Positions 1,110 to 19,251 of a DNA stretch of 29,926 nucleotides are shown here, in pieces. A program made the translations under genes and the position numbers. The stretch lies in the IMG/VR virus record IMGVR_UViG_2585427792_000002. One strand, 5' to 3'. Position 1 is the stretch's first letter; every line of letters begins with the position of its first letter. The notes beneath the pieces are model-generated. The model had not been told where the DNA came from. It was given only the letters and a program-made list of their open reading frames with translations, and made no database searches. Source of the DNA: a virus (Duplodnaviria > Heunggongvirae > Uroviricota > Caudoviricetes).

Positions 1110-1252
1110 ATATCACCTTAAATAGTGGATTGCGGTAGTAAAGATTGTGCCTGTCTTTTAACCACATCAGGCTCGGTGGTTCTCGTGTACCCCTACAACG
1201 AGAAATCGGATAAACTCTATTCACCCCTACAGAGAGCAAAAGAGAAACGCCG

Positions 1253-1834
1253 ATGAACAACTCATGGTGGCAGGAACTAATGCATTTTTTCCTGCAAGGA
1301 ATGACACTTAAACAGTTGATTCATATGCTAATCATCCTGATCATATTGATTATTGTTATGCCGGTAAGCGTAAAAGAATGGATAAACCTGCATAATCCAG
1401 AAATCCTTCCTCATTACTGGATGTATTACATCCTGTTGTTTTGCGTTAGCTATGTGCTTAACGGCGTTGTTAATTCCGCTTATCACGCTGTGACTGAAAG
1501 AATTGAGGTATTCGCTGCTCAGAAGCGCAAATCTAAAGAAGAAAAATATGTGCAAGATTTGTTTGATTCGTTAACTCTTGGAGAAAGAGCGTATTTGGCA
1601 TTCGCTGTAGCCGCTAATAACCAGCTACAAACGGAAAAGGGCGCTCATGAATCAATTTCATTGCTCAAAAAAGGACTCCTCGTTCGAAGGCCTCCTGCTG
1701 TTGGATATCCTGATACCGACCGTTTCGTTATCCCTGAAAGCTATAGACATGAGTGCTACATTAGGTTTGCCGGGAAGGCAGACAGCCTTATGGATGAACT
1801 TATCGCTCAGGATAAGCATGGCAAAAACAAGTAA
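1253..1834 (+). CDS. sieB: SieB superinfection exclusion protein (193 aa, membrane)
   Basis: ORF-track protein MNNSWWQELMHFFLQGMTLKQLIHMLIILIILIIVMPVSV... matches lambda SieB from memory; hydrophobic N-terminal segment; opposite strand to the pL operon as in lambda. Confidence 0.85.
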   Translation: MNNSWWQELMHFFLQGMTLKQLIHMLIILIILIIVMPVSVKEWINLHNPEILPHYWMYYILLFCVSYVLNGVVNSAYHAVTERIEVFAAQKRKSKEEKYVQDLFDSLTLGERAYLAFAVAANNQLQTEKGAHESISLLKKGLLVRRPPAVGYPDTDRFVIPESYRHECYIRFAGKADSLMDELIAQDKHGKNK

Positions 1835-1850
1835 TTAGCAAATGAATTTA

Positions 1851-2123
1851 TCATCTCGCCGTCAGTTGTTTTGATTTCCGGTAGCCTGCCGCGTAAAGAG
1901 CTACGTTCGGAAGACAAGTTGAACCTTCATATTTTCTGGTCAACGTTGTCAGAGTTATCACTTCTGCTCTCATTGCTGGTTTGAGCTTGCATTGCAAGAC
2001 CACTCGTGAAGGGGTTGGCCTGTGTAGCTTGTCGGAGCTGATCGCCTCCTGACTTTGCAGATTTGCGCGACGAGCTCTACGGCGAGAAGCTGCGGTGCCT
2101 TTAAATTCTGTTTTTCTGGACAT
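1851..2123 (-). CDS. N-like transcription antiterminator with arginine-rich motif (90 aa)
   Basis: First gene downstream of the nutL-like site on the pL strand. Internal ATG at 2121-2123 is preceded by a GGGAGGA Shine-Dalgarno and gives MSRKTEFKGTAASRRRARRANLQ..., an N-terminal arginine-rich motif typical of N proteins. Not lambda N. Confidence 0.55.
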   Translation of the reverse strand: MSRKTEFKGTAASRRRARRANLQSQEAISSDKLHRPTPSRVVLQCKLKPAMRAEVITLTTLTRKYEGSTCLPNVALYAAGYRKSKQLTAR

Positions 2124-2221
2124 GGATTCCTCCCGAATAAACTTTGGCGATGCAATCTCGAAGCTCCTCCTGAGACGGTTGCTTCGGCATTGCATCCCAC
2201 AGCTTATGTGGTTGGGTGATC

Positions 2222-2267
2222 TGGCTTTTCAGCCACGTAGTCGAGAGTCGACGTTGTTTAAAGAGCC
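2222..2267 (-). promoter_or_regulatory. nutL-like site: boxA plus boxB hairpin
   Basis: Minus-strand reading: boxA-like GGCTCTTTAAACAA (complement of 2254-2267), 18-nt spacer, then boxB-like hairpin TGGCT-GAAA-AGCCA (complement of 2222-2235). Same architecture as the nutR candidate at 4903-4948. Confidence 0.5.
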
Positions 2268-2289
2268 TGCCAGTCTGTTCCATTTGGCT

Positions 2290-2420
2290 TCCAGCGTCCT
2301 GCTGACGGTTAAATAGTACGATATGTACTTTACAAGATCAATACAATTTGTTGTAAGTTGGCGTGGTTTTTTATAACGCTTTGTATTTAATAGTGTTGTT
2401 TTTTAGCGTGGATGTATTGC
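2290..2420 (-). promoter_or_regulatory. Probable pL promoter / OL operator region
   Basis: AT-rich intergenic DNA between the cargo-operon terminator and nutL. Contains ATATGTACTTTACAAG and the palindrome TACAAtttgTTGTA; the ATATGTACTTT motif recurs (reverse complement) in the OR region. Exact -35/-10 not resolved. Confidence 0.3.
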
Positions 2421-2527
2421 CTCGGCGATGTAAGGAGAGATCAGAATTGCGTGGTTTAGTGGGTTGCATCTATTTATTTTTCAATAAATATAATTGGTTA
2501 TGTGTTTTTAGGTGGGCGAACGTGAGG

Positions 2528-2554
2528 CAAAGAAAACCCGGCGCTGAGGCCGGG
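2528..2554 (-). terminator. Intrinsic terminator ending the cI-cargo operon
   Basis: Plus-strand CCCGGC(2537-2542)/GCCGGG(2549-2554) stem with 6-nt loop; on the minus-strand transcript it is followed by UUUUCUUUG (complement of 2528-2536). Lies just 3' of the 250-aa gene stop at 2560. Confidence 0.5.
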
Positions 2555-2559
2555 GTGTA

Positions 2560-3312
2560 TTATGCTGCAAGTCTCTTAACCCAAGTCTCTCTTTTGGAGA
2601 ATGGTAGAACTTGGCTTGATTCATGGAAGAGTAAGGAGAGTTGTTGCATTTGATCACCAATTGCTTCGCTGTCTATAACAACAAATCTGTTGTTATACTC
2701 CTCACTTGAAGCTTTAAGATCAATTAGTTTCCCAAGCAATGAGTAAGCACTATTCCAGCTTCCTCCGTGTTTCACGCTTGATGTAAAAACGTATTTAGGT
2801 ATGTCGGTTTTTATTGTTACAGGGACGGTAATTTGATGTCCACTCAAGCCATATACGTTTTCACGAAGAGAAAGTGCGTCTCTAAGCTCTGTGTGATATA
2901 GATAATCAATAACCATACTTTCAAACTTTTCAGCTTGAACTGGCTGATACCAGTCTAACGACAAAGTTGATGCGAGTATACCAGCTCTAATTATGTTCGA
3001 TGTAATCGCACCGACATCCTTTTCTGTTGCCCAAGCAATGATTTCTCCTCGAGCATTGAGTTCTGCGCCTTCTTTAAGCAGTAATTGTCGTATCTCATCA
3101 AGTCGTTTTTTGGTAAGCGAGATCCCTCTTGCCTCCATATTCATTAAGGCATCGCATCTGTCACTAACTAAATACCTACCATTGACTTCACGGATAAAGG
3201 CACCGACATGCTCTCCATCATCACAGTAAGTGAATGGACTGATAATTCTCAAGGTCTTGCCTATTGGATGGCATTCGAAACCTAGTTGTGAGATCACTGT
3301 TGAGCACATCAT
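2560..3312 (-). CDS. Hypothetical protein (250 aa), distal gene of two-gene cargo operon in the rex slot
   Basis: ORF-track ORF; ATGATG start overlaps the TGA stop of the upstream 185-aa ORF (translational coupling); AT-rich relative to flanking phage genes; no family I can recognise from sequence. Confidence 0.75.
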   Translation of the reverse strand: MMCSTVISQLGFECHPIGKTLRIISPFTYCDDGEHVGAFIREVNGRYLVSDRCDALMNMEARGISLTKKRLDEIRQLLLKEGAELNARGEIIAWATEKDVGAITSNIIRAGILASTLSLDWYQPVQAEKFESMVIDYLYHTELRDALSLRENVYGLSGHQITVPVTIKTDIPKYVFTSSVKHGGSWNSAYSLLGKLIDLKASSEEYNNRFVVIDSEAIGDQMQQLSLLFHESSQVLPFSKRETWVKRLAA

Positions 3313-3866
3313 ATTCCAAACCCCATTTGCCCCGACTCATCTTCAAGCGGTAAAGGTATTCTCCCAGAGTAAGTTATGTTCAGATGTTTACAGAAGTAAT
3401 TCCAATACCCTACCAGGTCATCTGGGTTTATGTCATCTTCGATTGGAAACGCTATTCTATCACTATAGTATCCAGCTTCTTCATAGTATACATGGTAGTG
3501 AGCACCGTAAATGATATCTTGGTACTTCGGATGATCGACCTTGTAACTATTCGTGTGTTTGTCAAAGTGATAGGTATCTACCGCGAAAACCCTCTTGTTA
3601 TGATAGAAAGCAATAATATTTATTTTAGGGTAAGAAATCGGGTCATCAGGTTCTGAATCCTGATCTGGTTTCCATTTCAGTTCAAACTTTAGCCCTTGTA
3701 TAGGTATACAATCCTCATCCAAGGGGATGATATGGGCTTGTAGCCACATATCAGAGCGACTTGGTTTCTGTTTCCATTTAACGCCAGAAAAGTTAACTAT
3801 TTTTTTACAATAAAGTACTTTATCAACTTCTACTTGGCTTGGCTGATAATCATCTATTTTTGCCAA
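3309..3866 (-). CDS. Hypothetical protein (185 aa as drawn), proximal gene of two-gene cargo operon
   Basis: ORF-track ORF immediately downstream of cI on the same strand. Drawn start is TTG at 3864-3866; the first in-frame ATG is 39 codons later (codon at 3747-3749), so the start is uncertain. Asp/Tyr/His-rich; no recognisable family. Confidence 0.7.
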   Translation of the reverse strand: MAKIDDYQPSQVEVDKVLYCKKIVNFSGVKWKQKPSRSDMWLQAHIIPLDEDCIPIQGLKFELKWKPDQDSEPDDPISYPKINIIAFYHNKRVFAVDTYHFDKHTNSYKVDHPKYQDIIYGAHYHVYYEEAGYYSDRIAFPIEDDINPDDLVGYWNYFCKHLNITYSGRIPLPLEDESGQMGFGI

Positions 3867-3905
3867 TGTTTACCGCCCTGTAAATTGTAGATAAAAGTGG
3901 TTTCA

Positions 3906-4565
3906 TCACCCAAACGTCTCTTCAGGCCATTGGCTGGCGATAACTTTCCCCACAACGGAACAACTCTCATTGCATGGGATCATTGGGTATTGTGGGTTTA
4001 GTGGCTGTAGAAACACCTGACCGCTATCCCTGATCAGTTTCTTGAAGGTAAATTCATCACCACCAAGTCTGGCTATGCAGAAATCGCCGGGCTCAACAGC
4101 TTGCTCAGGGTCAACCAGAATTAACATCCCGTCAGGAAAGCTGGGTTTGGAACCTGTTGGTGCGGTCATTGAGTTACCTTCAACCTCAAGCCAGAATGCA
4201 GAGTCACTGGCTTTTTTGGTTGTGCTTACCAATCTCTCCGCATCGCCTTTGGTAAAGGTTCTGAGTTCTGGAGAGAACATCCCAGCCTGAACATGAGAAA
4301 AAACAGGGTACTCATATTGTTTTTTAACTGGGGCCGATGAGTATTCGCCAACAGGTGAAAATGTCCCGTCGTGGTTGAATGATATGTTATCAATACCAAG
4401 GTATTTAAACACCACACCAATATCACTAAGAGATGGATGACGAGATCCGCGCAACCAGTGTCCAATCCCACCCTGCGTCATACCTAGCTCTTCGGCTAAC
4501 TTCTCTTGAGTTATGCCGAGCTCTTTCATTCTGGATCTAGCCAGTTCATACCATTTCATTTTCAT
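3906..4565 (-). CDS. cI: CI-type prophage repressor (HTH N-domain + LexA/S24-like autocleaving C-domain)
   Basis: C-terminal portion ([26 protein letters not shown]...[12 protein letters not shown]) matches lambda cI from memory; N-terminal domain ([37 protein letters not shown]...) is a different HTH. Start ATG at 4563-4565 chosen for the AAGGA Shine-Dalgarno; ORF track extends to 4607. Confidence 0.85.
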
Positions 4566-4676
4566 GTCCTTATTATTACGCTCTGTACTGGAACCATCCA
4601 TGCACAATGTGTATTTTTACTTGTATTCGCAAAGTACATATTGTATTTTTTTATTCGTGTTTACTATGGAGGGCAT
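4566..4676. promoter_or_regulatory. OR-type divergent control region (pRM / pR and operators)
   Basis: 111-bp AT-rich spacer between divergent cI and cro starts; contains TTGTA/TACAA half-site repeats and AAAGTACATAT, which recurs reverse-complemented in the putative OL region; GGAGGG Shine-Dalgarno before cro. Confidence 0.5.
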
Positions 4677-4892
4677 ATGAGCAACCTACGAAAATATCGA
4701 GAGTCACTGAATATCTCTCAAACAACACTTGCTAAGGCAGTTGGATGCACACAGGGAGCTATCGGACATTGGGAATCTGGTCGTCGCTTCCCAGACCTTA
4801 AAACATGCCGTGCTCTTGTTGCGTGCCTAAACAAGTTAGGCGCAAAAGTCAGTCTTGATGACGTGTTCCCGCCGGAACACAAAGCCGCTTAA
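4677..4892 (+). CDS. cro: Cro-like HTH repressor (71 aa)
   Basis: ATG at 4677 preceded by GGAGGG; product MSNLRKYRESLNISQTTLAKAVGCTQGAIGHWESGRRFPDL... has an HTH signature; divergent from cI across the operator region. Not lambda Cro. Confidence 0.7.
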   Translation: MSNLRKYRESLNISQTTLAKAVGCTQGAIGHWESGRRFPDLKTCRALVACLNKLGAKVSLDDVFPPEHKAA

Positions 4893-4902
4893 TAAGCGGA
4901 TC

Positions 4903-4948
4903 CGCTCTTTGTAACAACGGACATTCGTCCTACGTCGCTGAAAAGCGA
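4903..4948 (+). promoter_or_regulatory. nutR-like site: boxA plus boxB hairpin
   Basis: boxA-like CGCTCTTTGTAACAA (4903-4917), 17-nt spacer, boxB-like hairpin TCGCT-GAAA-AGCGA (4935-4948). Same loop and spacing as nutL, with a compensatory base-pair change in the stem. Confidence 0.55.
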
Positions 4949-4977
4949 GTTCCAAGATATCTGACCAACTAAGGCCA

Positions 4978-5000
4978 TATGCGTTTCCACGCATACCTTT
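4978..5000 (+). terminator. Possible tR1-like hairpin between nutR and cII
   Basis: Stem TATGCGT(4978-4984)/ACGCATA(4989-4995) with TTCC loop, followed by CCTTTC; weak U-tract, so function uncertain. Confidence 0.3.
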
Positions 5001-5033
5001 CAACTAACTATTCACTATTGGAAATCTTAAGAA

Positions 5034-5330
5034 ATGGAAAGAACAAGTTACAGCAAACTATCACAGCGTGACGTTGATCGCGCAGAAACAGATTTACTTA
5101 TCAATCTGTCAGCTATTACCCAGCGCGGTCTGGCAAAGATGATTGGCTGTCATGAATCGAAGATAAGCAGAACGGACTGGAGATTTATTGCTTCGGTCTT
5201 GTGTGCTTTCGGAATGGCATCAGACATCAGTCCGATTAGCAGGGCTTTTAAGTATGCGCTTGATGGACTCACCAATAAAAAACGCCCGGCGGCAACCGAG
5301 CGTTCTGAACAAATCCAGATGGAATTCTGA
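5034..5330 (+). CDS. cII: CII-like transcriptional activator (98 aa)
   Basis: C-terminus ...LTNKKRPAATERSEQIQMEF matches lambda CII from memory; N-terminal part differs from lambda; position between cro/nutR and O. Confidence 0.8.
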   Translation: MERTSYSKLSQRDVDRAETDLLINLSAITQRGLAKMIGCHESKISRTDWRFIASVLCAFGMASDISPISRAFKYALDGLTNKKRPAATERSEQIQMEF

Positions 5331-5362
5331 GGTCATTACTGGATCAATCCACAGGAGTCATT

Positions 5363-6262
5363 ATGACAAATACAGCAAAAATACTCAACTTCTGCAGAGG
5401 TAACTTTGCCAAACAGGAGCGTAATGTGGCAGATCTCGATGATGGTTACGCCAGACTATCAAATATGCTGCTTGAGGCTTATTCAGGCGCAGATCTGACC
5501 AAGCGACAGTTTAAAGTGCTGCTTGCCATTCTGCGTAAAACCTATGGATGGAATAAACCAATGGACAGAATCACCGATTCTCAACTTAGCGAGATTACAA
5601 AGTTACCCGTCAAACGGTGCAATGAAGCCAAGTTAGAACTCGTCAGAATGAATATTATCAAGCAGCAAGGCGGCATGTTTGGACCAAATAAAAACATCTC
5701 AGAATGGTGTATCCCTCAAAACGAGGGAAAATCCCCTAAAACGAGGGATAAAACATCCCTCAAATTGGGGGATTGCTATCCCTCAAAACAGGGGGACACA
5801 AAAGACACTATTACAAAAGAAAAAAGAAAAGATTATTCGTCCGAGAATTCTGGCGAATCCTCTGACCAGCCAGAAAACGACCTTTCTGTGGTGAAACCGG
5901 ATGCTGCAATTCAGAGCGGCAGCAAGTGGGGGACAGCAGAAGACCTGACCGCCGCAGAGTGGATGTTTGACATGGTGAAGACCATCGCGCCATCAGCCAG
6001 AAAACCGAATTTTGCAGGGTGGGCTAACGATATCCGCCTGATGCGTGAACGTGACGGACGTAACCATCGCGACATGTGTGTACTTTTCCGCTGGGCATGC
6101 CAGGACAACTTCTGGTCCGGTAACGTGCTGAGCCCGGCCAAACTCCGCGACAAGTGGACCCAGCTCGAAATCAACCGTAACAAGCAACAGGCAGGCGTGA
6201 CAGCCAGCAAACCAAAACTCGACCTGACAAACACTGACTGGATTTACGGGGTGGATTTATGA
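5363..6262 (+). CDS. O: Replication initiator O (299 aa)
   Basis: ORF-track protein MTNTAKILNF...TDWIYGVDL matches lambda O from memory and contains the ori iterons in-frame. Confidence 0.9.
   Translation: MTNTAKILNFCRGNFAKQERNVADLDDGYARLSNMLLEAYSGADLTKRQFKVLLAILRKTYGWNKPMDRITDSQLSEITKLPVKRCNEAKLELVRMNIIKQQGGMFGPNKNISEWCIPQNEGKSPKTRDKTSLKLGDCYPSKQGDTKDTITKEKRKDYSSENSGESSDQPENDLSVVKPDAAIQSGSKWGTAEDLTAAEWMFDMVKTIAPSARKPNFAGWANDIRLMRERDGRNHRDMCVLFRWACQDNFWSGNVLSPAKLRDKWTQLEINRNKQQAGVTASKPKLDLTNTDWIYGVDL
5711..5840. other. ori-lambda: four ~18-bp iterons plus adjacent AT-rich unwinding region
   Basis: ATCCCTCAAAACGAGGGA / TCCCCTAAAACGAGGGA / TCCCTCAAATTGGGGGA / TCCCTCAAAACAGGGGGA followed by an A/T-rich stretch (AAAAGACACTATTACAAAAGAAAAAAGAAAAG), inside the O gene. 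Confidence 0.85.
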
Positions 6263-6960
6263 AAAACATCGCCGCACAGATGGTTAATTTTGACCGTGAG
6301 CAGATGCGTCGGATCGCCAACAACATGCCGGAACAGTACGACGAAAAGCCGCAGGTACAACAGGTAGCGCAGATCATCAATGGTGTGTTCAGCCAGTTAC
6401 TGGCAACTTTCCCGGCGAGCCTGGCTAACCGGGACCAGAACGAACTGAACGAAATCCGCCGCCAGTGGGTGCTGGCTTTCCGGGAAAACGGGATCACCAC
6501 AATGGAACAGGTTAACGCAGGAATGCGCGTAGCCCGTCGGCAGAATCGACCATTTCTGCCATCACCCGGGCAGTTTGTTGCATGGTGCCGGGAAGAAGCA
6601 TCCGTTATCGCCGGACTGCCAAACGTCAGCGAGCTGGTTGATATGGTTTACGAGTATTGCCGGAAGCGAGGCCTGTATCCGGATGCGGAGTCTTATCCGT
6701 GGAAATCAAACGCGCACTACTGGCTGGTTACCAACCTGTATCAGAACATGCGGGCCAATGCGCTGACTGACGCGGAATTACGCCGTAAGGCCGCAGATGA
6801 GCTTGTCCATATGACTGCGAGAATTAACCATGGTGAGGCGATCCCTGAACCAGTAAAACAACTTCCTGTCATGGGCGGTAGACCTCTAAATCGTGCACAG
6901 GCTCTGGCGAAGATCGCAGAAATCAAAGCTAAGTTCGGACTGAAAGGAGCAAGTGTATGA
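6259..6960 (+). CDS. P: Replication protein P (DnaB helicase loader, 233 aa)
   Basis: ORF-track protein MKNIAAQMVNFDREQMRRIANN... matches lambda P from memory; start overlaps the O stop. Confidence 0.9.
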   Translation: MKNIAAQMVNFDREQMRRIANNMPEQYDEKPQVQQVAQIINGVFSQLLATFPASLANRDQNELNEIRRQWVLAFRENGITTMEQVNAGMRVARRQNRPFLPSPGQFVAWCREEASVIAGLPNVSELVDMVYEYCRKRGLYPDAESYPWKSNAHYWLVTNLYQNMRANALTDAELRRKAADELVHMTARINHGEAIPEPVKQLPVMGGRPLNRAQALAKIAEIKAKFGLKGASV

Positions 6961-7247
6961 CGGGCAAAGAGGCAATTATTCATTACCTGGGGACGCATAA
7001 TAGCTTCTGTGCGCCGGACGTTGCCGCGCTAACAGGCGCAACAGTAACCAGCATAAATCAGGCCGCGGCTAAAATGGCACGGGCAGGTCTTCTGGTTATC
7101 GAAGGTAAGGTCTGGCGAACGGTGTATTACCGGTTTGCTACCAGGGAAGAACGGGAAGGAAAGATGAGCACGAACCTGATTTTTAAGGAGTGTCGCCAGA
7201 GTGCCGCGATGAAACGGGTATTGGCGGTATATGGAGTTAAAAGATGA
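6957..7247 (+). CDS. ren: Ren (Rex exclusion-resistance) protein (96 aa)
   Basis: ORF-track protein MTGKEAIIHYLGTHNSFCAPDVAALTG... matches lambda Ren from memory; start overlaps the P stop. Confidence 0.8.
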   Translation: MTGKEAIIHYLGTHNSFCAPDVAALTGATVTSINQAAAKMARAGLLVIEGKVWRTVYYRFATREEREGKMSTNLIFKECRQSAAMKRVLAVYGVKR

Positions 7248-7272
7248 CCATCTACATCACTGAGCTAATAAC

Positions 7273-7304
7273 AGGCCTGCTGGTAATCGCAGGCCTTTTT
7301 ATTT
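7273..7304 (+). terminator. Intrinsic terminator (tR2-like) between ren and ninB
   Basis: 8-bp GC-rich stem AGGCCTGC(7273-7280)/GCAGGCCT(7289-7296) with 8-nt loop, followed by TTTTTATTT. Confidence 0.6.
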
Positions 7305-7320
7305 GGGGGAGAGGGAAGTC

Positions 7321-7761
7321 ATGAAAAAACTAACCTTTGAAATTCGATCTCCAGCACATCAGCAAAACGCTATTCACGCGGTACAGCAAATTCTTCCAGA
7401 CCCAACCAAACCAATCGTAGTAACCATTCAGGAACGCAACCGCAGCTTAGACCAGAATCGAAAGCTTTGGGCTTGCCTTGGTGACGTCTCTCGTCAGGTT
7501 GAATGGCATGGTCGCTGGCTGGATGCAGAAAGCTGGAAGTGTGTGTTTACCGCAGCATTAAAGCAGCAGGATGTTGTTCCTAACCTTGCCGGGAATGGCT
7601 TTGTGGTAATAGGCCAGTCAACCAGCAGGATGCGTGTAAGCGAATTTGCGGAGCTATTAGAGCTTATACAGGCATTCGGTACAGAGCGTGGCGTTAAGTG
7701 GTCGGACGAAGCGCGACTGGCTCTCGAATGGAAAGCGCGATGGGGAGACAGGGCGGCATGA
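7321..7761 (+). CDS. ninB: NinB (146 aa)
   Basis: ATG at 7321 preceded by a GGGAG/GGAAG Shine-Dalgarno; product [23 protein letters not shown]... matches lambda NinB from memory (ORF track starts 18 nt earlier). Confidence 0.85.
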
Positions 7762-7940
7762 GACGACAGCGACGAAGTATCACCGACATCATCTGCGAAA
7801 ACTGCAAATACCTTCCAACGAAACGCTCCAGAAATAAACGCAAGCCAATCCCAAAAGAATCTGACGTAAAAACCTTCAACTACACGGCTCACCTGTGGGA
7901 TATCCGGTGGCTAAGACATCGTGCGAGGAATACAAGGTGA
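7758..7940 (+). CDS. ninE: NinE-like protein (60 aa)
   Basis: ATG at 7758 overlapping the ninB stop; product [34 protein letters not shown]...; length and sequence fit lambda nin orf60 from memory. ninC and ninD appear absent. Confidence 0.65.
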
Positions 7941-8107
7941 TTGACCCAAATCGAAGTTACGAACAAGAAAGCGTCGAGCGGGCTTTAACGTGCGCTAATT
8001 GCGGTCAGAAGCTGCATGTGCTGGAAGTTCACGTGTGTGAGTACTGCTGTGCAGAGCTGATGAGCGATTCGAATAGCTCGATGCACGAGGAAGAAGATGA
8101 TGGCTAA
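7937..8107 (+). CDS. ninF: NinF-like protein (56 aa from GTG; alternative ATG at 7895 would give 70 aa)
   Basis: CxxC...CxxC motif ([20 protein letters not shown]); a GTG start at 7937 overlaps the ninE stop and gives a 56-aa product consistent with lambda orf56. Confidence 0.55.
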
Positions 8108-8711
8108 ACCAGCGCGAAGACGATGTAAAAACGATGAATGTCGGGAATGGTTTCACCCTGCATTCGCTAATCAGTGGTGGTGCTCTCCAGAGTGTGGAAC
8201 CAAGATAGCACTCGAACGACGAAGTAAAGAACGCGAAAAAGCGGAAAAAGCAGCAGAGAAGAAACGACGACGAGAGGAGCAGAAACAGAAAGATAAACTT
8301 AAGATTAGAAAACTCGCCTTAAAGCCCCGCAGTTACTGGATTAAACAAGCCCAAAAAGCCGTAAACGCCTTCATCAGAGAAAGAGACCGCGACTTACCAT
8401 GTATCTCTTGCGGAACGCTCACGTCTGCTCAGTGGGATGCCGGACATTACCGGACAACTGCTGCGGCACCTCAACTCCGATTTGATGAACGCAATATTCA
8501 CAAGCAATGCGTGGTGTGCAACCAGCACAAAAGCGGAAATCTCGTTCCGTATCGCGTCGAACTGATTAGCCGCATCGGGCAGGAAGCAGTAGACGAAATC
8601 GAATCAAACCATAACCGCCATCGCTGGACTGTCGAAGAGTGCAGGGCCATCAAGGCGGAGTATCAGCAGAAACTCAAAGACCTGCGAAACAGCAGAAGTG
8701 AGGCCGCATGA
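8097..8711 (+). CDS. ninG: NinG / Rap recombination-promoting protein (204 aa)
   Basis: ORF-track protein [28 protein letters not shown]... matches lambda NinG (orf204) from memory. Confidence 0.85.
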
Positions 8712-8754
8712 CGTTCTCAGTAAAAACCATTCCAGATCACAAGGGAGAAGGCGC

Positions 8755-11649: not shown

Positions 11650-12201
11650 ATGGCACTCACAGACAAGCAAGAGATGTTCTGTCGCGAGTACCTCATCGAT
11701 TTAAACGCCACGCAAGCGGCTATTCGGGCGGGGTACAGCGCAAAAACAGCCAACCGTACCGCATCCGAAAACCTGTCAAAACCTGACATCAAGTTAAGAA
11801 TCGCCGAACTGAAAGCGCAACGCAATGATCTTGTTGGTATTAATGCAGAATATGTACTTAATCGCCTTATTGAAATCGACCAGATGGATGTGCTTGACAT
11901 TCTCCTGCAAAACGGTGAGCTAAAACCCATTAAAGACTGGCCTAAGGTATGGCGCACAACGTTATCAGGAATGGATGTCGTGGAGATGGCATCCGCAGAT
12001 AGCGCCGCACTTCTGAAGAAAATCAAATGGCCTGATAAGGTTAAAAACCTTGAGTTGCTCGGGCGTCATGTTTCTGTTCAGGCGTTTAAAGACAATGTCA
12101 AAAATGAAGTGACTGGTGCTGACGGAGGACCAGTCAGAACAGAAATTACCAACTTAACGCCGGAGCAGGTTGCAGAAGCGTATAGAAAAATGATGGGCTA
12201 A
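11650..12201 (+). CDS. Terminase small subunit (non-lambda type)
   Basis: 183-aa ORF immediately upstream of and nearly abutting the large terminase; N-terminal region ([30 protein letters not shown]) resembles small-terminase DNA-binding domains; not lambda Nu1. Confidence 0.65.
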
Positions 12202-12203
12202 GT

Positions 12204-13826
12204 ATGCCGTTACCATTCCCCTTCGATTTTAAAAATCCTGATTACCAGATGGTTTTTGAATGGCGGATGGAACGCTTACAGCGCATTCGCCAGAACCCTG
12301 AAATATTGCCAGCACTAAAACAGTTTTACCGAACCAATCCGGCTCAGTTCATCATCGACTGGGGCATGACAACGGACCCGCGTAATATTGATTATGGCCT
12401 GCCGGTGACCATTCCGTTTTTACTCTTCCCTAAGCAGGAGGAGTGGATCCACTGGATTATGGAACGCTGGAGCAATCGGGAGAATGGTATTACCGAAAAA
12501 TCCCGTGAAATGGGGCTCAGTTGGACCGCGATCGGACTGGCATGCTCGCTTTGTCTCTTCAACAAAGAAATGGTTATCGGTTTTGGCTCCCGTAAAGAGG
12601 AATACGTCGACAGCACTGGTGACCCGAAAGCATTGTTCTGGAAGGCGCGCAAGTTCGTGGAAACGCTACCTGTAGAGTTTCGCGGTTCGTGGAGTGAGAA
12701 GAAGCACGCGCCATATATGCGTGTTGAGTTTCCTGAAACTGGTGCCGTTATCAAAGGCGAGGCTGGCGATAATATTGGTCGTGGTGACCGTACCACGCTT
12801 TATCTGGTTGATGAGGCTGCATTCCTTCAGCGTCCTCTGCTGATTGATGCGGCGTTGTCACAAACGACGCGTTGCCGTATCGACCTGAGTTCAGTTAACG
12901 GCATGGCTAACCCGTTCGCTCAGAAGCGTCATGGCGGGAAGATACCGGTATTCACATTCCACTGGCGGGATGATCCTCGCAAGGATGAAGAGTGGTATCG
13001 CAGGGAATGCGAGAAAATCGATAATCCGGTGGTGGTGGCACAGGAACTTGATCTGAACTACAGCGCATCAGCGGAAGGCGTCCTGATTCCATCCGAATGG
13101 GTACAGGCTGCCGTTGATGCGCATATCAGACTGGGTATCCAGCCAACAGGCAAACGACTTGGCGCGATGGATGTCGCTGATGAAGGCAGGGACAAAAATG
13201 CCTTTTCCACCCGTCATGGCTTCCTCCTGGAAAATGTGCGGGAATGGTCCGGTGTGGGCAGCGACATTTATCAGTCCGTCGAGAAGGTTTTCGGCTTTTG
13301 CGAACAGGACAACCTCGAAGAGTTTCGCTTTGACGAGGACGGGCTGGGCGCTGGCGTTCGCGGCGATGCACGCGCTATCAACGAACTGCGTAACGCTGCG
13401 CGTCGACCGTCAATACTTGCCACACCGTTTCGAGGTAGTGGCGCGGTATTTGATCCGGATGATGAAGCTGTTCGCGGGGACAACGGGCAAGCCGCACGTC
13501 TGAACAAGGACTTCTTCGCTAACGCCAAAGCCCAGAGCTGGTGGCGGTTACGTAAACTTTTTCAGAATACCTGGCGCGCCGTGGTTGAAGGTATGGCTTA
13601 CAACCCGGACGAAATCATCTCAATCAGCAGTAGCATGGCACTCAAAGATAAACTCATCATCGAGCTTTCGCAGCCGACCTATTCCATTAATGGTGTGGGA
13701 AAAATAGTTATTGATAAACAGCCTGATGGAACCCGATCGCCAAACCTTGCCGACTCGGTGATGATCAACTATGCCCCAATGAATTCAGCCCTGAACATCT
13801 GGGAGCTGCTAGGGAGACAGGCCTGA
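12204..13826 (+). CDS. Terminase large subunit (540 aa)
   Basis: Size and position (after the small subunit, before the portal); acidic motifs consistent with an ATPase/nuclease, but no HMM was run. Confidence 0.7.
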
Positions 13827-15292
13827 TGGCACGAAACAAACAAGCCCTGCGGCGAACTGCGCAGGCCACAGCTGATGGTTATGAGAATTTTATTGCCCGC
13901 GTAGGGATGCAGACAACTAACCAGCACTCAGCATCCACCTACCGGGCTAATTTCACCAGTCGTAACCGCATGCTGGTGGAATGGTCCTATCGTTCGTCCT
14001 GGATCATCGGCGAAGCGGTCGATGCTATCCCGGATGATATGACCCGCAAAGGCATTCGCATCACTTCGGAAATTGATGCAAAAGATCGCGGCATTCTCGA
14101 ATCACAACTGGATGAGTTGCAAATCTGGGATGCGCTGAATGACGTGCTGAAATGGTCGCGCCTCTACGGCGGCGCGGTGGGTTTCATCATGATTGAGGGG
14201 CAGGCACCAATGACCCCGCTGCGACCCGAAACCATCGGTAAGGGCAAGTTTAAGGGGATTCTCCCGCTCGACCGCTGGATGATTGACCCGGTACTGACCC
14301 GCCGCATTAAAGATATGGGGCCGGACCTGGGTAAACCTGAGTTTTACGATGTGGTGACCACAGCAACGGGAATTCCTGCCTGGCGCATTCATCACAGTCG
14401 ACTGATTCGCTTTGATGGCGTCACGCTGCCATTTCAGCAGAAGATGACCGAGAACGAATGGGGAATGTCGGTTGTAGAGCGTATCTGGGATCGTCTTACC
14501 GCGTTCGACAGCGCTACTGTCGGCGCGGCGCAGCTGGTCTACAAAGCGCATTTGCGTACCTACAGCGTGGAGAAGCTACGCGAGCTTATCGCACTTGGTG
14601 GTCCTGCGTATGAAGCGTTGCTGAAGAATATTGACCTGATTCGACAGTTCCAGAGCAATGAAGGCATGACTCTCATGGACTCGCGGGATAAGTTTGAAAC
14701 CCATCAGTACAGCTTCAGTGGTCTGGATGACATCCTTTCACAGTTTGCAGAACAGATTAGTGGCGCTGTTGGTATCCCACTGGTGCGGTTGTTCGGACAG
14801 TCCCCGAAGGGATTTTCTACCGGCGATGCAGACCTTGCCAACTATTACGACCGGGTAAGCTCGTTGCAGGAGAGGCGTTTACGTCTTCCGGTGCGGCGGA
14901 TACTGGACATCATGCATCGTTCGGAGCTTGGCAAGCCGCTGCCGGACGATTTCACGTTTGAGTTTAACCCGCTCTGGCAAATGTCTGATGTCGATCGCTC
15001 AACGGTGGCGTTAAACACTACCAACGCAATCAGTACAGCGCTGGGTGATGGTCTGATGACACTGAAAGCCGCTATGACTGATTTGCGAGAAAATTCTGAC
15101 GTAACCGGCATCGGGGCATCCATTACCGACGAGGACATAGAGAATGCCGAAGACGAAGCGCCGCCCGGCATCGGCGAACCTGATGACGAACCGCAGGAAC
15201 CGTCAGGCGGAAATCCGGTATCGAACCAGCCTACGCAGGATAGCGCGGGCGGTAGGGGACATCGTAAATGGTCACTACGATGGTTCAAATGA
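13826..15292 (+). CDS. Portal protein (488 aa)
   Basis: Position directly after the large terminase (ATG overlaps the terminase TGA), size, and acidic disordered C-terminal tail. Confidence 0.7.
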   Translation: MARNKQALRRTAQATADGYENFIARVGMQTTNQHSASTYRANFTSRNRMLVEWSYRSSWIIGEAVDAIPDDMTRKGIRITSEIDAKDRGILESQLDELQIWDALNDVLKWSRLYGGAVGFIMIEGQAPMTPLRPETIGKGKFKGILPLDRWMIDPVLTRRIKDMGPDLGKPEFYDVVTTATGIPAWRIHHSRLIRFDGVTLPFQQKMTENEWGMSVVERIWDRLTAFDSATVGAAQLVYKAHLRTYSVEKLRELIALGGPAYEALLKNIDLIRQFQSNEGMTLMDSRDKFETHQYSFSGLDDILSQFAEQISGAVGIPLVRLFGQSPKGFSTGDADLANYYDRVSSLQERRLRLPVRRILDIMHRSELGKPLPDDFTFEFNPLWQMSDVDRSTVALNTTNAISTALGDGLMTLKAAMTDLRENSDVTGIGASITDEDIENAEDEAPPGIGEPDDEPQEPSGGNPVSNQPTQDSAGGRGHRKWSLRWFK

Positions 15293-15917
15293 CAGTATCA
15301 CGGAAATTATTGAGGCGCTGGAACGCTACAGTGAAATCATCACCCCCTGGGCGACAAAGGTCGCGGAAAACTTTACCGCCGATATTGTGCGCAAGAATGA
15401 TGAGCAGTGGCGTAAACACAGCAAAACCATCAGCCGTGAGCTACGCAATCTGGTAAACAGTGCCCCGCCAGGGCAGGTGATGAAATCCATCGTTGCTGAA
15501 CAGGTTAAGTACATTAAATCGCTACCCCTCGAGGCGGCTGACAGGGTGTACGACATCCAGAATCGGGCGATTGAAGCTGTTGTGACCGGTGGGAGAGCGG
15601 AACATTTTGCTAAAGAAATAGCCGCATCGGGTGATATAGCAAAGTCCAGAGCTGACCTGATTGCCCGTACTGAACTTGGACGTGCAACCGGCGCGCTGGA
15701 TCAGGCGCGTGCGCTGGCAATTGGTTCGAATGGTTATATCTGGCGTACAGCCGAAGATGGTGACGTCAGGCATTCTCATCGGGAAATGGAAGGTAAATTT
15801 GTCGAATGGGGCAAACCTCCAACGCTTGATGGCATGACCGGTCACGCTGGCGAGCTCCCGAATTGTCGCTGTTATAAAGAAATCGTTTTTCCCACCTCCC
15901 ATTCTTATCCCGCCTGA
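15144..15917 (+). CDS. Head morphogenesis protein (Mu F / SPP1 gp7-like), start uncertain
   Basis: ORF after the portal in a different frame; the only in-frame ATGs (15144, 15183) lie inside the portal 3' end, giving a 110-149 nt overlap. Confidence 0.55.
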   Translation: MPKTKRRPASANLMTNRRNRQAEIRYRTSLRRIARAVGDIVNGHYDGSNDSITEIIEALERYSEIITPWATKVAENFTADIVRKNDEQWRKHSKTISRELRNLVNSAPPGQVMKSIVAEQVKYIKSLPLEAADRVYDIQNRAIEAVVTGGRAEHFAKEIAASGDIAKSRADLIARTELGRATGALDQARALAIGSNGYIWRTAEDGDVRHSHREMEGKFVEWGKPPTLDGMTGHAGELPNCRCYKEIVFPTSHSYPA

Positions 15918-15931
15918 ATCGCAGGTAACAC

Positions 15932-17152
15932 ATGAAATATTTTTTCAATACCCGGCTGGGGGAAACCCGCTATCAGCTGGCTGACGGCTCGTTGCTGTGC
16001 AAAGACGTGCCGATAGGACGAACAGGTAAGCAGCTCTATGGTGCTGATGACCTGCCAAAACTGAAACCCGATAAGTTCGGTGAAATAGTCGTCACGCGTT
16101 CTCCTGAGCAGGTATTCCATCCCGCCACGCTTGCCTCATTCGAAGGAATGAGTATCACGGTGTTGCATCCCGAGGATGAAAACGGGGATGTGCGGCTGGT
16201 GAATCCAGAGAACTGGAAAGAGCTCGCGGTCGGGCATCTTCAGAATGTCCGGCGCGGGACGGGTGTGCAGTCTGATTTGATGCTGGCTGACCTTATCGTC
16301 AAAGACGAAAACGCCATTCAGCTGATCGAAGATGGCCTGCGCGAAGTGTCGTGTGGCTATGACGCGGAATATAAGCAGACTGAGCCGGGTAAGGCTGAGC
16401 AGGTTGATATTACCGGAAACCATGTGGCTCTTGTCCCTAAAGGCAGAGCCGGAAATCGTTGTGCAATTGGAGACAGAGACACAATGGCAAATCAAAAGAA
16501 AAGCTGGTGGACCCGCATGCGCACGGCCATCAAAACGGGTGACGCTGACACCATGAACGAACTGGTGGAGTCGGCTCCCGCATCGGTTACAGGAGATGAG
16601 GGGGATTTGCCGCAGGGCGTTAATCTCAACATCAACCTGTCCCCGCAGCAACCGCTACCGGACAAAGCACCAGAGATGGGCGGAGGTCCAACGGGCGACA
16701 GTGATGATGACCTCAAAACATTACTGAAAGCCCTGCTGGCTAAGCTGGAAGGAAATGCGACGGGCGATAACGACAATAAGCCTGACGATAATCCGACCGG
16801 TGACGGCGAGGACGATGAAGAGGAAACCACGATTACTGGTGACTCAGCCTGGCGTGCCGAAGTTATCGTTCCGGGTATTGATCTGAGCCGTAAGATGAAA
16901 CCGACCGCGTTCAAACGTGAGGTTCTGGCTTCTGCTGACAAAACGCTGGTTCGCCAGATAGTCGGTGATGCGGATATCCGCAAATTGCCGAAACAATCAG
17001 TCGACATGGCGTTTAATGCCGTGTCTGAGATTGCCAAAGGGCGAAACACCCGCGCCACCACCGGCGATGCACAGCGCCCAAATATGGGCATGACCAGTAT
17101 CGCTTCCCTGAACAAACAAAACGCTGAATTCTGGGCAAACCGTAAAGGGTAA
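15932..17152 (+). CDS. Putative prohead protease / scaffold fusion protein (406 aa)
   Basis: Position between head-morphogenesis and capsid genes; highly acidic, low-complexity middle region (GDSDDD..., DGEDDEEE) typical of scaffolding domains. Confidence 0.5.
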   Translation: MKYFFNTRLGETRYQLADGSLLCKDVPIGRTGKQLYGADDLPKLKPDKFGEIVVTRSPEQVFHPATLASFEGMSITVLHPEDENGDVRLVNPENWKELAVGHLQNVRRGTGVQSDLMLADLIVKDENAIQLIEDGLREVSCGYDAEYKQTEPGKAEQVDITGNHVALVPKGRAGNRCAIGDRDTMANQKKSWWTRMRTAIKTGDADTMNELVESAPASVTGDEGDLPQGVNLNINLSPQQPLPDKAPEMGGGPTGDSDDDLKTLLKALLAKLEGNATGDNDNKPDDNPTGDGEDDEEETTITGDSAWRAEVIVPGIDLSRKMKPTAFKREVLASADKTLVRQIVGDADIRKLPKQSVDMAFNAVSEIAKGRNTRATTGDAQRPNMGMTSIASLNKQNAEFWANRKG

Positions 17153-17155
17153 AAA

Positions 17156-17662
17156 ATGAATAATGTATTTCTGTACCGGATGCCTGTTGGCATTGCCGGG
17201 GCTGTCTCTCGCCCGCAGGACTTAACCGTCGAACCGGTGGTCCTTAAATCCGATAACGCCTTTGCTGCCTATGGGCTGGCTGGTAAATACGATGATGACG
17301 GTTTTTTCGTGCCGCTGGCAGATGGTGATACCGCAGACAAGGTGAAGGGGATCTACGTGCGCCCTTATCCGACCACGTCGCAGCCGGACATGGTTCGCCA
17401 GGTGGGAACAGGCAAGAACTTCCCGGGCGACGCAATGAAGCGTGGCTACGTGACCGTTAATCTCGGTTCTGATTTTGATGCCAGCACCATCAAAAAAGGC
17501 GACCCGGTATACGTTGTCGTCTCCACTGATGAATCCATCAAAGTGCCGCTGGGTGGATTCATGGCCACGTCAGTCAGTGGCAAAAACGTGGTGCTGACCA
17601 ACGCTGAATTCACAGGTGCCGGTGATGCTAACGGCAATGCAGAAATTTCCTGGAAGATTTAA
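17156..17662 (+). CDS. Head-associated protein (possible decoration/cement protein, 168 aa)
   Basis: Compact ORF immediately upstream of the major capsid gene; assignment by position only. Confidence 0.45.
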   Translation: MNNVFLYRMPVGIAGAVSRPQDLTVEPVVLKSDNAFAAYGLAGKYDDDGFFVPLADGDTADKVKGIYVRPYPTTSQPDMVRQVGTGKNFPGDAMKRGYVTVNLGSDFDASTIKKGDPVYVVVSTDESIKVPLGGFMATSVSGKNVVLTNAEFTGAGDANGNAEISWKI

Positions 17663-17673
17663 GGAACAGACGA

Positions 17674-18615: not shown

Positions 18616-18622
18616 CAGCCAC

Positions 18623-18643
18623 ATGGCCCCCTGGCGGGGCCAT
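18623..18643 (+). promoter_or_regulatory. GC-rich stem-loop immediately 3' of the capsid gene (no U-tract)
   Basis: ATGGCCCC(18623-18630)/GGGGCCAT(18636-18643), 8-bp perfect stem with 5-nt loop; next gene's AAGGA and ATG follow directly. Confidence 0.3.
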
Positions 18644-18656
18644 TAAGGATGACCCG

Positions 18657-18878
18657 ATGGCAAAAAATAATGCAGTAATACACGTACATACCCCGTTTGT
18701 GCTCACGCTTCCCGACGGTTCACGGCGCGAGTTTGTTAAAGGCCGTCATGCTGTGGAGGAAGACGTTGCCACGCACTGGTTCACTCGTGCGCACGCGGAA
18801 GTATCCGTTGGCAAAGCCACAGACGCGCGTAACGAGGTAAAAAATGCCAAAGAATCAAAGTCTGCCAGCGGTAAGTGA
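18657..18878 (+). CDS. Hypothetical small protein (73 aa)
   Basis: ORF with AAGGA Shine-Dalgarno directly after the capsid-gene hairpin. Confidence 0.5.
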
Positions 18879-19251
18879 TTTTCGCCGCGACTTCCCGCAG
18901 TTTGCTGACCCTGCCAAATATCCCGAAGCGCAAATCCAGTTTCGTCTGAATCTGGCCGATGAACTGCTGAGCGAAAACGTCACCGGCAAAAAGTTGTTTC
19001 CGTACTTTGCCGGGTTGTTCGTTGCGCACTACATGACGCTCTGGGCGGCAGACAGCCGGGCGATGCTGGCTGGTGGTTCGGGCGGTTCAACCAATGGTGT
19101 TCAGTCCTCAAAGTCCGTGGATAAGGTAAGCGTCAGTTATGACACCAGCGCGACGCTGAATCCTGATGCAGGTTTCTGGAATAACACCCGATATGGCGCT
19201 GAATTTTATCAGTTGATCACGATGTTCGGTGCAGGCGGTCGCCAGCTATGA
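18844..19251 (+). CDS. Putative head-tail connector / head completion protein (135 aa)
   Basis: Position in the head-to-tail joining block; overlaps the upstream ORF. Confidence 0.5.

Follow-up and report, generated by a model that had tools for sequence, protein, structure and literature searches.

The cI-cro-cII region at 3906-5330 of the window, by which we mean the whole 29,926-nucleotide stretch of viral DNA analysed here, is very probably the lysis-lysogeny switch of a natural lambdoid prophage, of an immunity type that has been sequenced many times before. Its 1425 bp were found with 100% nucleotide identity in the phages ev207, ev017, PhiR57_1 and PhiR63_2 and in E. coli Nissle 1917, ATCC 11775, NU14 and others, and the Stx phages Nil2, 2851 and 1717 and the Stx1 phage AP005153 (source paper probably Sato et al. 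2003, J Bacteriol) are 96.7-97.8% identical to the module. At least 80% of the region was covered in 631 of 5426 complete E. coli genomes. An assembly chimera was ruled out, as the identical module is present in many independent complete genomes. The original prediction had described the region as a mosaic in which recombination within genes produced a phage heteroimmune to lambda. Every element that it named was located where it had been placed, and breakpoints relative to lambda do exist; on the other side, the module is identical over its full length to a described type, and the hybrid cannot count as new when phages already sequenced and a large number of E. coli genomes have its 1425 bp unchanged. 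The immunity module is known, widespread and classified, and its repressor and cII patchworks are textbook phage mosaicism and no new system. Lambdoid phages are well known for mosaic joints that fall inside genes at domain boundaries. The module is a clean worked example, of small value as a discovery.

We considered whether the module is a decayed, non-functional remnant of a cryptic prophage. In Nissle 1917, the prophage that carries this very module has an IS-interrupted, truncated integrase and was reportedly not inducible (PMC5987069), so function of the switch in the window is not guaranteed. However, the N, cI, cro, cII, O and P ORFs are all intact, the four phages named above carry the identical module as viable particles, and the window carries on downstream into complete lysis and structural modules, with a SEN34-like late region, which together make a remnant very unlikely.

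The repressor gene cI (3906-4565, minus strand) encodes 219 amino acids within an ORF of 3906-4607, and its likely start is the ATG at 4565. As had been predicted, the protein combines a lambda C-terminal domain with a different N-terminal HTH. Codons 84-219 (3906-4316) are of lambda type and comprise the hinge, the Ala94-Gly95 cleavage site and the S24 peptidase/oligomerisation domain (Pfam Peptidase_S24, PF00717, E = 1.1e-28). Residues 84-219 are identical to residues 102-237 of lambda cI at 135 of 136 positions, the sole change in the C-terminal domain being W130L (lambda numbering with Met1), and they gave an exact match to the PDB lambda CI hinge/C-terminal-domain fragments 8GMU, 2HO0 and 1F39. 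The corresponding DNA (3905-4316) is 93.4% identical to lambda 37226-37637 (E = 1e-179), and 26 of the 27 changes in this 6.6% divergence are synonymous, leaving one non-synonymous. QAGM at residues 93-96 aligns to lambda A112-G113, Ser132 (in GNSMT) to S150 and, by the same 18-residue offset, Lys175 to K193 (lambda Met1 numbering). Because the hinge and C-terminal domain are those of lambda, they should supply dimerisation, pairwise and long-range cooperativity (between OL and OR, about 2.3 kb), and RecA-stimulated self-cleavage at Ala94-Gly95, for which Ser132 and Lys175 would serve as the equivalents of lambda Ser150 and Lys193.

Codons 1-83 of cI (4317-4565) encode a non-lambda HTH_3 DNA-binding domain, the determinant of immunity specificity, with a Pfam HTH_3 match at residues 11-58 (E = 1.9e-10); its identity to the counterpart in lambda is about 20%. 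These 83 residues are 100% identical in at least 56 phage records by tblastn, and the nearest diverged N-terminal domains are those of the Salmonella phages g341c/epsilon34 (52%) and L (55%). This CI is the 'Clade I' Stx-phage repressor, reported to be 61% identical to lambda CI (Fagerlund et al. 2022, PMC8951638).

At the cI junction (4316/4317), the 93% identity to lambda gives way within about 3 bp to sequence that cannot be aligned, and cII switches at 5266-5268. Abrupt junctions inside both genes require recombination, which had been proposed from the domain boundaries, and the relationships of the N- and C-terminal parts are also discordant in 121 cI homologues. Among these, the identities of the two domains were correlated with r = 0.19 and 123 pairs were strongly discordant: 40 pairs combined an identity below 35% in the N-terminal domain with one of at least 95% in the C-terminal domain, and 83 pairs showed the opposite, with at least 75% in the N-terminal and below 65% in the C-terminal domain. 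The C-terminal-domain allele of the window cI (at least 97% identity) was found with at least three unrelated types of N-terminal domain, and P0028 has an N-terminal domain of the same type as the window with a C-terminal domain just 57% identical. It might be supposed that cI never recombined and that its N-terminal domain diverged fast under diversifying selection while the C-terminal domain was conserved. The very strong purifying selection on the C-terminal domain (26 synonymous changes versus 1 non-synonymous) and the homologous HTH_3 folds of the N-terminal domains in the family agree with this supposition, yet the collapse of DNA similarity within about 3 bp, the single allele behind unrelated N-terminal domains, the P0028 combination and the incongruence of the two domains are all contrary to it. 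Since gradual divergence cannot be the cause of the N-/C-terminal discordance, we regard it as extremely improbable. In the recombinational reading, the exchange in the inter-domain hinge, at codons 83/84, would be one case of an exchange point that recurs in the repressor family; other enterobacterial C-terminal-domain alleles of cI are likewise each common to at least three types of N-terminal domain.

The cro gene (4677-4892, plus strand; 71 aa) was likewise found to be non-lambda, as predicted. Its product is of the all-alpha HTH_3 type (Pfam HTH_3, E = 4e-12), unrelated to lambda Cro, with which no meaningful alignment was obtained. Cro is 100% identical in at least 59 phage records by tblastn, and its closest diverged relative is that of Salmonella phage L (69%). 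An all-alpha Cro in the style of P22 and 434 would compete with CI for the same operators.

Comparison of OL with OR gave three candidate operators at each, in agreement with the claim that the two regions share sequence: ATATGTACTTT occurs at 2321 on the plus strand and its reverse complement at 4631. The six 17-bp operators have the consensus AAGTACAATTTGTACTT, with a dyad of about AAGTAC-N5-GTACTT. To rank them, leave-one-out scans with a symmetrised PWM were run over 29,905 positions of the window, and each of the six ranked between first and fourth, far beyond chance. At OL, the OL1-like operator nearest N (TAGTACGATATGTACTT, 2314-2330) overlaps the -10 of the PL candidate, is identical to a 'putative operator' of AP005153 and ranked first; the middle operator (CAATACAATTTGTTGTA, 2339-2355) and the distal one (TATAACGCTTTGTATTT, 2372-2388) each have one substitution relative to the AP005153 operator and also ranked first. 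At OR, the OR3-like operator (TATTACGCTCTGTACTG, 4574-4590) lies within the PRM candidate, is identical to an AP005153 operator and ranked second, the OR2-like operator (ATGCACAATGTGTATTT, 4600-4616) abuts the -35 of PRM and ranked fourth, and the OR1-like operator (AAGTACATATTGTATTT, 4632-4648) overlaps the -10 of PR, ranked first and had the top PWM score in the window. GenBank record AP005153 already has six putative operators annotated; four of the window operators are identical to that set and the other two are one base off. An operator pattern with the wrong spacing, TACNNNNNTGTA, gave only three matches, at chance level, and none of them at OL or OR. Lambda operators (of the TATCACCGC...GGTGATA type) are absent from OL and OR, where the consensus differs, and lambda OR1 with up to three mismatches had no match anywhere in the window. 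The operators are spaced by 32 and 26 bp at OR and by 25 and 33 bp at OL, versus 20-24 bp in lambda, and because this spacing is unlike that of lambda, lambda-like pairwise cooperativity of CI is an assumption here.

Candidate promoters accompany these sites. The PL candidate, TTGATC-17-TACTAT (2313-2341, minus strand), was found in a relaxed scan with 8 of 12 consensus matches and agrees with the -10/-35 of AP005153; the PRM candidate, TGGATG-17-AATAAT (4572-4600, minus strand), also has 8 of 12, with its -35 and -10 at the positions annotated in AP005153; and the PR candidate, TTTACT-17-TATTGT (4616-4644, plus strand), again has 8 of 12. A strict scan (at least 9 of 12 matches) missed PR, PL and PRM alike, so the promoter positions, which we infer together with operator occupancy, rest on the 8/12 matches and the AP005153 annotation. 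The predicted start of the PRM candidate, at about 4565, coincides with the cI ATG, so a leaderless cI mRNA would result, as in lambda, and the OR2-like site stands beside the -35, also as in lambda. In the proposed scheme, CI dimers would bind the six dyad operators through the non-lambda HTH and repress PL and PR, and CI at the OR2-like site adjoining the PRM -35 would autoregulate cI. As the N-terminal domain, Cro and the operators are all non-lambda and no lambda operator is present, we soundly infer that this CI would be heteroimmune to lambda, and annotation pipelines should call it so despite more than 60% overall identity.

The cII gene (5034-5330, plus strand) has a full-length Pfam Phage_CII match (PF05269, residues 1-92, E = 7e-34) and matches lambda CII in the PDB (1XWR) with E = 9e-10. 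Codons 1-78 (5034-5267) are of the HK022/H-19B/Stx-phage type and codons 79-98 (5268-5330) encode a lambda-type tail: the last 20 amino acids, LTNKKRPAATERSEQIQMEF, are identical to lambda, and the remainder is unalignable with lambda at the DNA level. The N-terminal part has 87-96% identity in at least 260 phage records by tblastn. Over residues 1-77 the identity to HK022 is about 90%, this part being the widespread HK022/H-19B-type CII, and the DNA at 5200-5265 is the same as in HK022 and Nil2. Eight of the 20 residues at 79-98 are not those of HK022; HK022-type sequence does not extend across the whole of cII, and the gene is a chimera. The prediction of a lambda C-terminus on a different N-terminus therefore holds for CII. 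The further claim, that a lambda effector domain was joined to DNA binding of a new specificity, does not, since what comes from lambda is a C-terminal tail of 20 residues, in the stretch where cII and the antisense oop gene overlap.

At nucleotides 10-23 of cII we found a candidate CII box of PRE, TTGCTGTAACTTGT (5043-5056, minus strand). This TTGC-N6-TTGT box is one base off the CII consensus, lies at the position of TTGC-N6-TTGC (TTGCGTTTGTTTGC) in lambda and is kept in HK022 and Nil2. Within the window, TTGC-N6-TTGC with one mismatch allowed is no commoner than chance predicts (36 found, 38 expected), and the evidence for the box is its positional conservation at the 5' end of cII. Because the box is at the same place as in lambda, the specificity of CII is probably unchanged, with lambda-like recognition of the TTGC repeat, and HK022-type CII would activate PRE through this box in the first cII codons. 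A lambda-type oop antisense RNA gene (5279-5388, minus strand) was identified by promoter and terminator scans, with P_O, TTGAGT-17-CATAAT, at 5388-5360 and the terminator at 5306-5279 followed by a T-run, both on the minus strand. The level of CII would be controlled by its C-terminal tail of lambda type and by the antisense oop RNA that overlaps cII.

Lambda homology begins at 5268, just past the T-run of the oop terminator, and similarity to Nil2 and HK022 stops at 5370, inside a conserved P_O/oop box of 33 bp (5339-5371 in the window) described in PMC3349717. From 5268 to 7761 (O, P, ren, ninB) the window is 97.9% identical to lambda and from 7765 to 8736 (ninE-ninG) 97.5%, which bears out the expectation that the lambda O/P replication and nin modules had been kept; the lambda-type replication genes O (5363-6262) and P (6259-6960) occupy 5363-6960 on the plus strand. 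Kil through ral are 98.4% identical to lambda. The non-lambda immunity substitution spans 1233-5267. Its left part holds an N-like, non-lambda antiterminator gene (1851-2195, minus strand; PHROG 271, E = 2.3e-24) with no lambda DNA match, and N through OL is 93% identical to Nil2 and the Stx1 phage. The end of the immunity operon (2435-2554, minus strand) is lambda-like, 90% identical to lambda 35708-35824, with a t_imm-like terminator hairpin at 2537-2554 followed by a T-run. In the position of lambda rexA-rexB lies a two-gene cargo (2560-3866, minus strand), consisting of one gene at 3309-3866 (185 aa) and another at 2560-3312 (250 aa, Pfam DUF1828). The pair also has a weak Pfam DUF6978 match and matches the PADLOC candidate defence system PDC-M24 (component B, 4.7e-10; component A, 4.8e-4), and no DNA match to it was found in lambda or the Stx phages.

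The original prediction implied that one cross with lambda yielded both junctions. A single recent cross between a heteroimmune phage and lambda itself would account for the lambda-like DNA that borders both junctions and for the 97.9% and 98.4% identities of O-ninB and kil-ral to lambda. However, the C-terminal-domain DNA of cI is only 93.4% identical to lambda, versus about 98% in the flanking lambda modules. Phages whose N-terminal domain is of the window type share this DNA at 98% identity or more, and they include Stx phages in which the replication genes are non-lambda and the cII tail is of HK022 type. The window allele belongs to a separate clade from the lambda-immunity phages (HK97, HK106, HK542 and lambda), which form a 93-95% group of their own by cI C-terminal-domain DNA. 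Such a cross is highly improbable on these grounds. The junctions are of unequal age and separate origin: all carriers, Stx phages with non-lambda replication genes included, have the one in cI, whereas the one in cII was confined to the lineage that has lambda O/P, and Nil2 and HK022 have a diverged tail of HK022 type instead. Since the cI C-terminal-domain DNA is further from lambda than the flanks and is shared with the Stx phages, the old cI junction predates the younger cII/O-P junction and is independent of it. Both would have arisen by homologous or illegitimate recombination, and the younger one, at the 3' end of oop in cII, would have joined the immunity cassette and a lambda-type oop-O-P-ren-nin module, in either direction.

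Compared with known systems, the window lacks the lambda-type CI N-terminal domain, Cro and operators that define the imm-lambda group and has the CI DNA-binding domain, Cro and operator set of the Nil2/AP005153/2851 immunity type. Phages ev207 and ev017 (genus Jouyvirus), PhiR57_1 and PhiR63_2 and the icd-adjacent prophage 3 of Nissle 1917 show no difference from the window within 3906-5330 and, like it, carry the DUF1828 gene pair where lambda has rex, together with O, P, ren and ninB of lambda type, but their downstream nin region and late genes are unlike those of the window. The Stx phages Nil2 (AJ413274), AP005153, 2851, 1717 and YYZ-2008 share 100% identical proteins over cI residues 1-83 and Cro. 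The C-terminal-domain DNA of cI in Stx phages of the Nil2/AP005153 type is 98.5% identical to the window; their cII tail and oop, however, are of HK022 type where those of the window are of lambda type, and they have non-lambda replication genes (HK022-like O, DnaB-like P) and other cargo in the rex position. Lambda shares with the window the gene order, the 3+3 arrangement of 17-bp operators and the t_imm region (90%), and differs in that the window has rexAB replaced, non-lambda N/nut and sieB, wider operator spacings and a Cro of another fold class (all-alpha HTH_3). Salmonella phage L (and SEN22) has the closest diverged specificity elements (Cro 69%, repressor N-terminal domain 55%); its C-terminal domain and replication genes are different, a c1 of P22 type stands where the window has a cII of HK022 type, and the operator specificity of phage L presumably differs from that of the window. 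The classical hybrids lambda imm21 and lambda imm434 also carry a non-lambda immunity substitution amid lambda-type recombination, replication and nin genes, and the right end of the imm21 substitution is likewise inside cII; these are laboratory crosses with phages 21 and 434 as donors, and their repressors are not known to carry the lambda C-terminal domain. Genomes of both hybrids have been reported (PMC9119081).

The C-terminal domain of lambda CI functions in dimerisation. Because two heteroimmune repressors that co-circulate in the same E. coli populations have near-identical hinge and C-terminal domains (135/136), mixed dimers, tetramers or octamers of lambda CI and the window CI could form between co-resident prophages or superinfecting phages, although we consider this rather unlikely. 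Artificial heterodimers of the 434 and P22 repressors have reportedly been published. If mixed dimers do form, they might bind neither operator set well, and the outcome might be negative dominance ('anti-immunity'), a coupling of induction thresholds, or cooperativity that reaches across unrelated immunity systems. The repeated recombination in the hinge could then be maintained by selection that favours or opposes this cross-talk, or that favours a match to host RecA. The identical C-terminal domains of heteroimmune repressors offer a natural system in which to study heterodimer cross-talk.

The chimeric cII also has a published counterpart. An insert from Nissle 1917 in pUC19, containing the cII ORF, reduced the plating of lambda and of an Stx phage more than 200-fold (PMC5987069), and the primers of that clone map to 4988-5355 of the window. 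The 'phage repressor (pr)' of Nissle 1917, described as protective against lambda and Stx phages, is the chimeric cII, so the published phenotype is to be read differently: the plating phenotype of the pUC19 clone fits CII acting on heterologous lambdoid phages.

The window was compared with lambda by blastn, and about 1230-5270 proved to be a lambdoid immunity region set within lambda-type DNA. Five segments matched lambda: kil, cIII, ea10 and ral at 1-1232 (lambda 33249-34480, 98.4% identity), the downstream end of the rex operon at 2435-2554 (lambda 35708-35824, 90%), the C-terminal part of cI at 3905-4316 (lambda 37226-37637, 93.4%), the cII tail, O, P, ren and ninB at 5268-7761 (lambda 38591-41084, 97.9%) and ninE to ninG at 7765-8736 (lambda 42097-43068, 97.5%). 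The last two bear out the original prediction that the O/P and nin modules were kept, and the stretches between the five segments had no lambda DNA match in this search. On its minus strand the region carries an N-like gene (1851-2195), a pair of genes at the rex position (2560-3312, 3309-3866) and cI (3906-4565, counted from the ATG of MKMKW; Pfam HTH_3 and Peptidase_S24); its other ORFs are cro (4677-4892; HTH_3) and cII (5034-5330; full-length Phage_CII).

The 1425-bp stretch from cI to cII (3906-5330) is 100% identical in phages ev207, ev017, PhiR57_1 and PhiR63_2 and 96.7-97.8% identical in Nil2, 2851, 1717, YYZ-2008, the Stx1 phage and many other Stx phages. Of 5426 complete E. coli genomes, 631 contain 80% or more of this stretch; Nissle 1917, NU14 and the type strain ATCC 11775 are among those with a 100% copy. 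Its CI type is the 'Clade I' of Stx-phage CI proteins of Fagerlund et al. 2022 (PMC8951638), who gave 61% overall identity to lambda CI without treating its domain structure. That lambdoid phages are mosaic in general, and pass on cI and cro together as one unit, is also established (PMC9836094). Considering these copies and the published clade, the mosaic immunity region is an accurate description of a known module; the predicted intragenic recombination is real, the immunity type is old and widespread, and the reading of cII needs correction.

In the case of CI, residues 84-219 equal lambda CI 102-237 except for one change, W130L, whereas over residues 1-83 identity to the N-terminal domain of lambda falls to about 20%, as expected for a lambda C-terminal domain joined to a different HTH domain. 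The lambda-identical block coincides exactly with the crystallised lambda hinge and C-terminal-domain fragments (8GMU, 2HO0, 1F39) and contains the predicted Ala-Gly cleavage site, A94-G95; Ser132 is the equivalent of the catalytic Ser150 of lambda, and Lys175, derived from the same 18-residue offset, that of Lys193. Codon 112 (4230-4232; lambda W130 in Met1 numbering), where this single Trp-to-Leu change lies, falls in the cleavage-site region, and P0001, a homologue representing a large database cluster, has Trp at the equivalent position.

Lambda DNA identity stops sharply at 4316/4317, between cI codons 83 and 84, inside the inter-domain hinge and ten codons upstream of the cleavage site. 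The same two domains are joined in at least 56 phage records, and the junction is not confined to this phage. In the DNA of the C-terminal domain, phages that share this N-terminal domain match the window at 98% or more, whereas those of lambda immunity (lambda, HK97, HK106, HK542, HK544) stand apart as a group at 93-95%. Since 26 of the 27 differences from lambda in this DNA are also synonymous, the two lineages have been apart for some time, with very strong purifying selection acting on them.

To compare the hinge more widely, we searched a large protein database and aligned 121 CI homologues domain by domain. N-terminal domains below 35% identity were paired with C-terminal domains of at least 95% in 40 pairs, the reverse (N-terminal at least 75%, C-terminal below 65%) held in 83 pairs, and the two identities were almost uncorrelated (r = 0.19). 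A second C-terminal allele, that of homologue P0049, is common at 97-99% to three N-terminal types: a lambda-like one, that of the window (P0003, P0004, P0005) and a third (P0061). Gradual divergence cannot give this pattern, whereas recombination at the hinge can explain it. Together with the break at 4316/4317, the discordance upholds the proposed exchange at a domain boundary and shows exchange at the hinge to be recurrent. The C-terminal alleles (P0002-P0120) seem to be grouped by host genus, Escherichia versus Enterobacter, Citrobacter and Salmonella, rather than by N-terminal type, which hints at repeated local exchange or a host-specific constraint such as RecA.

The GenBank record of the Stx1-converting phage AP005153 lists six putative operators of 17 bp, half of them at OL and half at OR. 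Mapped onto the window, they lie at 2314, 2339, 2372, 4574, 4600 and 4632, four identical and two one base apart, with the symmetrised consensus AAGTACAATTTGTACTT. The operator sequence predicted to be common to OL and OR was recovered: ATATGTACTTT occurs at 2321 and its reverse complement at 4631. Each operator kept a rank of first to fourth out of the 29,905 positions of the window when it was omitted from the PWM, which establishes the family as real and restricted to OL and OR; no lambda operator was found in the window with up to three mismatches. Measured between centres, the OL operators lie 25 and 33 bp apart and the OR operators 26 and 32 bp. Because these spacings are wider than in lambda, lambda-style CI cooperativity is only plausible.

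Relaxed matching gave candidates for PL (TTGATC-17-TACTAT, 2341-2313), PR (TTTACT-17-TATTGT, 4616-4644) and PRM (TGGATG-17-AATAAT, 4600-4572), all putative positions with 8 of 12 consensus matches that a strict scan did not pick up. The PRM candidate has its -35 adjoining the OR2-like site and a predicted start at the cI ATG at 4565, an arrangement resembling that of lambda, in which the cI mRNA would be leaderless. Public records differ in the cI start, with 231 aa from an ATG at 4601 (RefSeq, AP005153) or 217 aa (Nil2); the PRM candidate favours a 219-aa CI, as the longer N-terminus would fall upstream of it.

Cro gave no alignment to lambda Cro, and among its diverged relatives the nearest is the Cro of Salmonella phage L (69%), in agreement with the predicted non-lambda cro. 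The ev207 RefSeq record (NC_049949) annotates no cro CDS in the interval from cI to cII, even though the 71-aa HTH_3 ORF there is unbroken and conserved at 100%. Between cro and cII, a boxA-like CGCTCTTTG (4903-4911) and a small hairpin at about 4935-4948 with a GAAAA-containing loop, read by eye, could be nutR for a non-lambda N.

CII ends in 20 residues (LTNKKRPAATERSEQIQMEF) that match lambda exactly, and its first 77 are HK022-type, with about 90% identity to HK022 and 87-96% to cII of H-19B, HK106 and many Stx phages. Both halves therefore are as originally described; their interpretation as an effector domain and a new DNA-binding specificity needs correction. The window equals HK022 and Nil2 up to 5265 and lambda from 5268. 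A promoter and terminator scan placed a lambda-type P_O at 5388-5360 and the oop terminator at 5306-5279, both on the minus strand, so lambda homology starts just past the terminator's T-run and the 'lambda C-terminus' is the part of cII overlapping the antisense oop gene. In lambda CII these residues are the flexible C-terminal tail that directs the protein to FtsH proteolysis, and not a separate effector domain. The tail appears to have arrived with the lambda-type oop-O-P-ren-nin block. It marks a sublineage of the window, ev207, ev017, PhiR57_1, PhiR63_2 and the Nissle 1917 prophage. In contrast, Nil2, with the same cI, cro and operators, kept the HK022-type tail ITKKKSPAATEDFKQIDMQF. Its sequence does not part from that of the window until past 5370, a point within the 33-bp P_O/oop box that is reported to be conserved in lambdoid phages (PMC3349717).

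As the common HK022/H-19B/933W-type first 77 residues occur with several immunity types, they are not an immunity determinant. A TTGC-N6-TTGT box at cII nucleotides 10-23 is placed exactly as TTGC-N6-TTGC in lambda, so CII specificity is probably conserved rather than changed; phage L has TTGC-N6-TTGC one base further on. Bury et al. 2018 (PMC5987069) reported that the 'phage repressor (pr, EcN_1294)' of Nissle 1917 lowered the permissiveness of MG1655 to lambda and an Stx phage by a factor of more than 200. Their primers for qPCR and cloning fall at 5231-5289 and 4988-5355, on the chimeric cII ORF, which rules out pr as cI; repressor immunity is a less likely cause of its phenotype than CII (or the oop region).

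Taken together, the module is very probably a working lambda-style bistable switch. The non-lambda CI N-terminal domain and Cro would set operator specificity and hence heteroimmunity, the lambda-type C-terminal domain would allow CI to oligomerise and to form a loop from OL to OR (about 2.3 kb apart) and would make induction RecA-dependent, and HK022-type CII on a TTGC-type PRE would establish lysogeny under control of the lambda-type oop and tail.

The lambda rexA-rexB position (2560-3866, minus) is filled by two unrelated genes, bordered by a lambda-like t_imm on one side and the cI stop codon on the other. The 185-aa protein has a weak DUF6978 match and the 250-aa protein is a DUF1828 protein; in the PADLOC candidate defence system PDC-M24 they matched its two components, A (4.8e-4) and B (4.7e-10), respectively. 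The flanks are lambda-like on both sides. Considering that a different gene is found there in Stx phages with this immunity type, the position looks like a swappable defence-cargo slot. Relative to lambda, ninC-ninD (lambda 41085-42096) is missing between ninB and ninE (7761-7765), whereas ev207 and Nissle 1917 have a DNA methyltransferase at this point. The late region (12019-25000) is non-lambda, with 97.6% identity to vB_EcoM-type E. coli phages and 82.6% to Salmonella phage SEN34, and includes a tail sheath, a myovirus-type module, so that the phage joins a lambda-type early region to a contractile-tail structural module.
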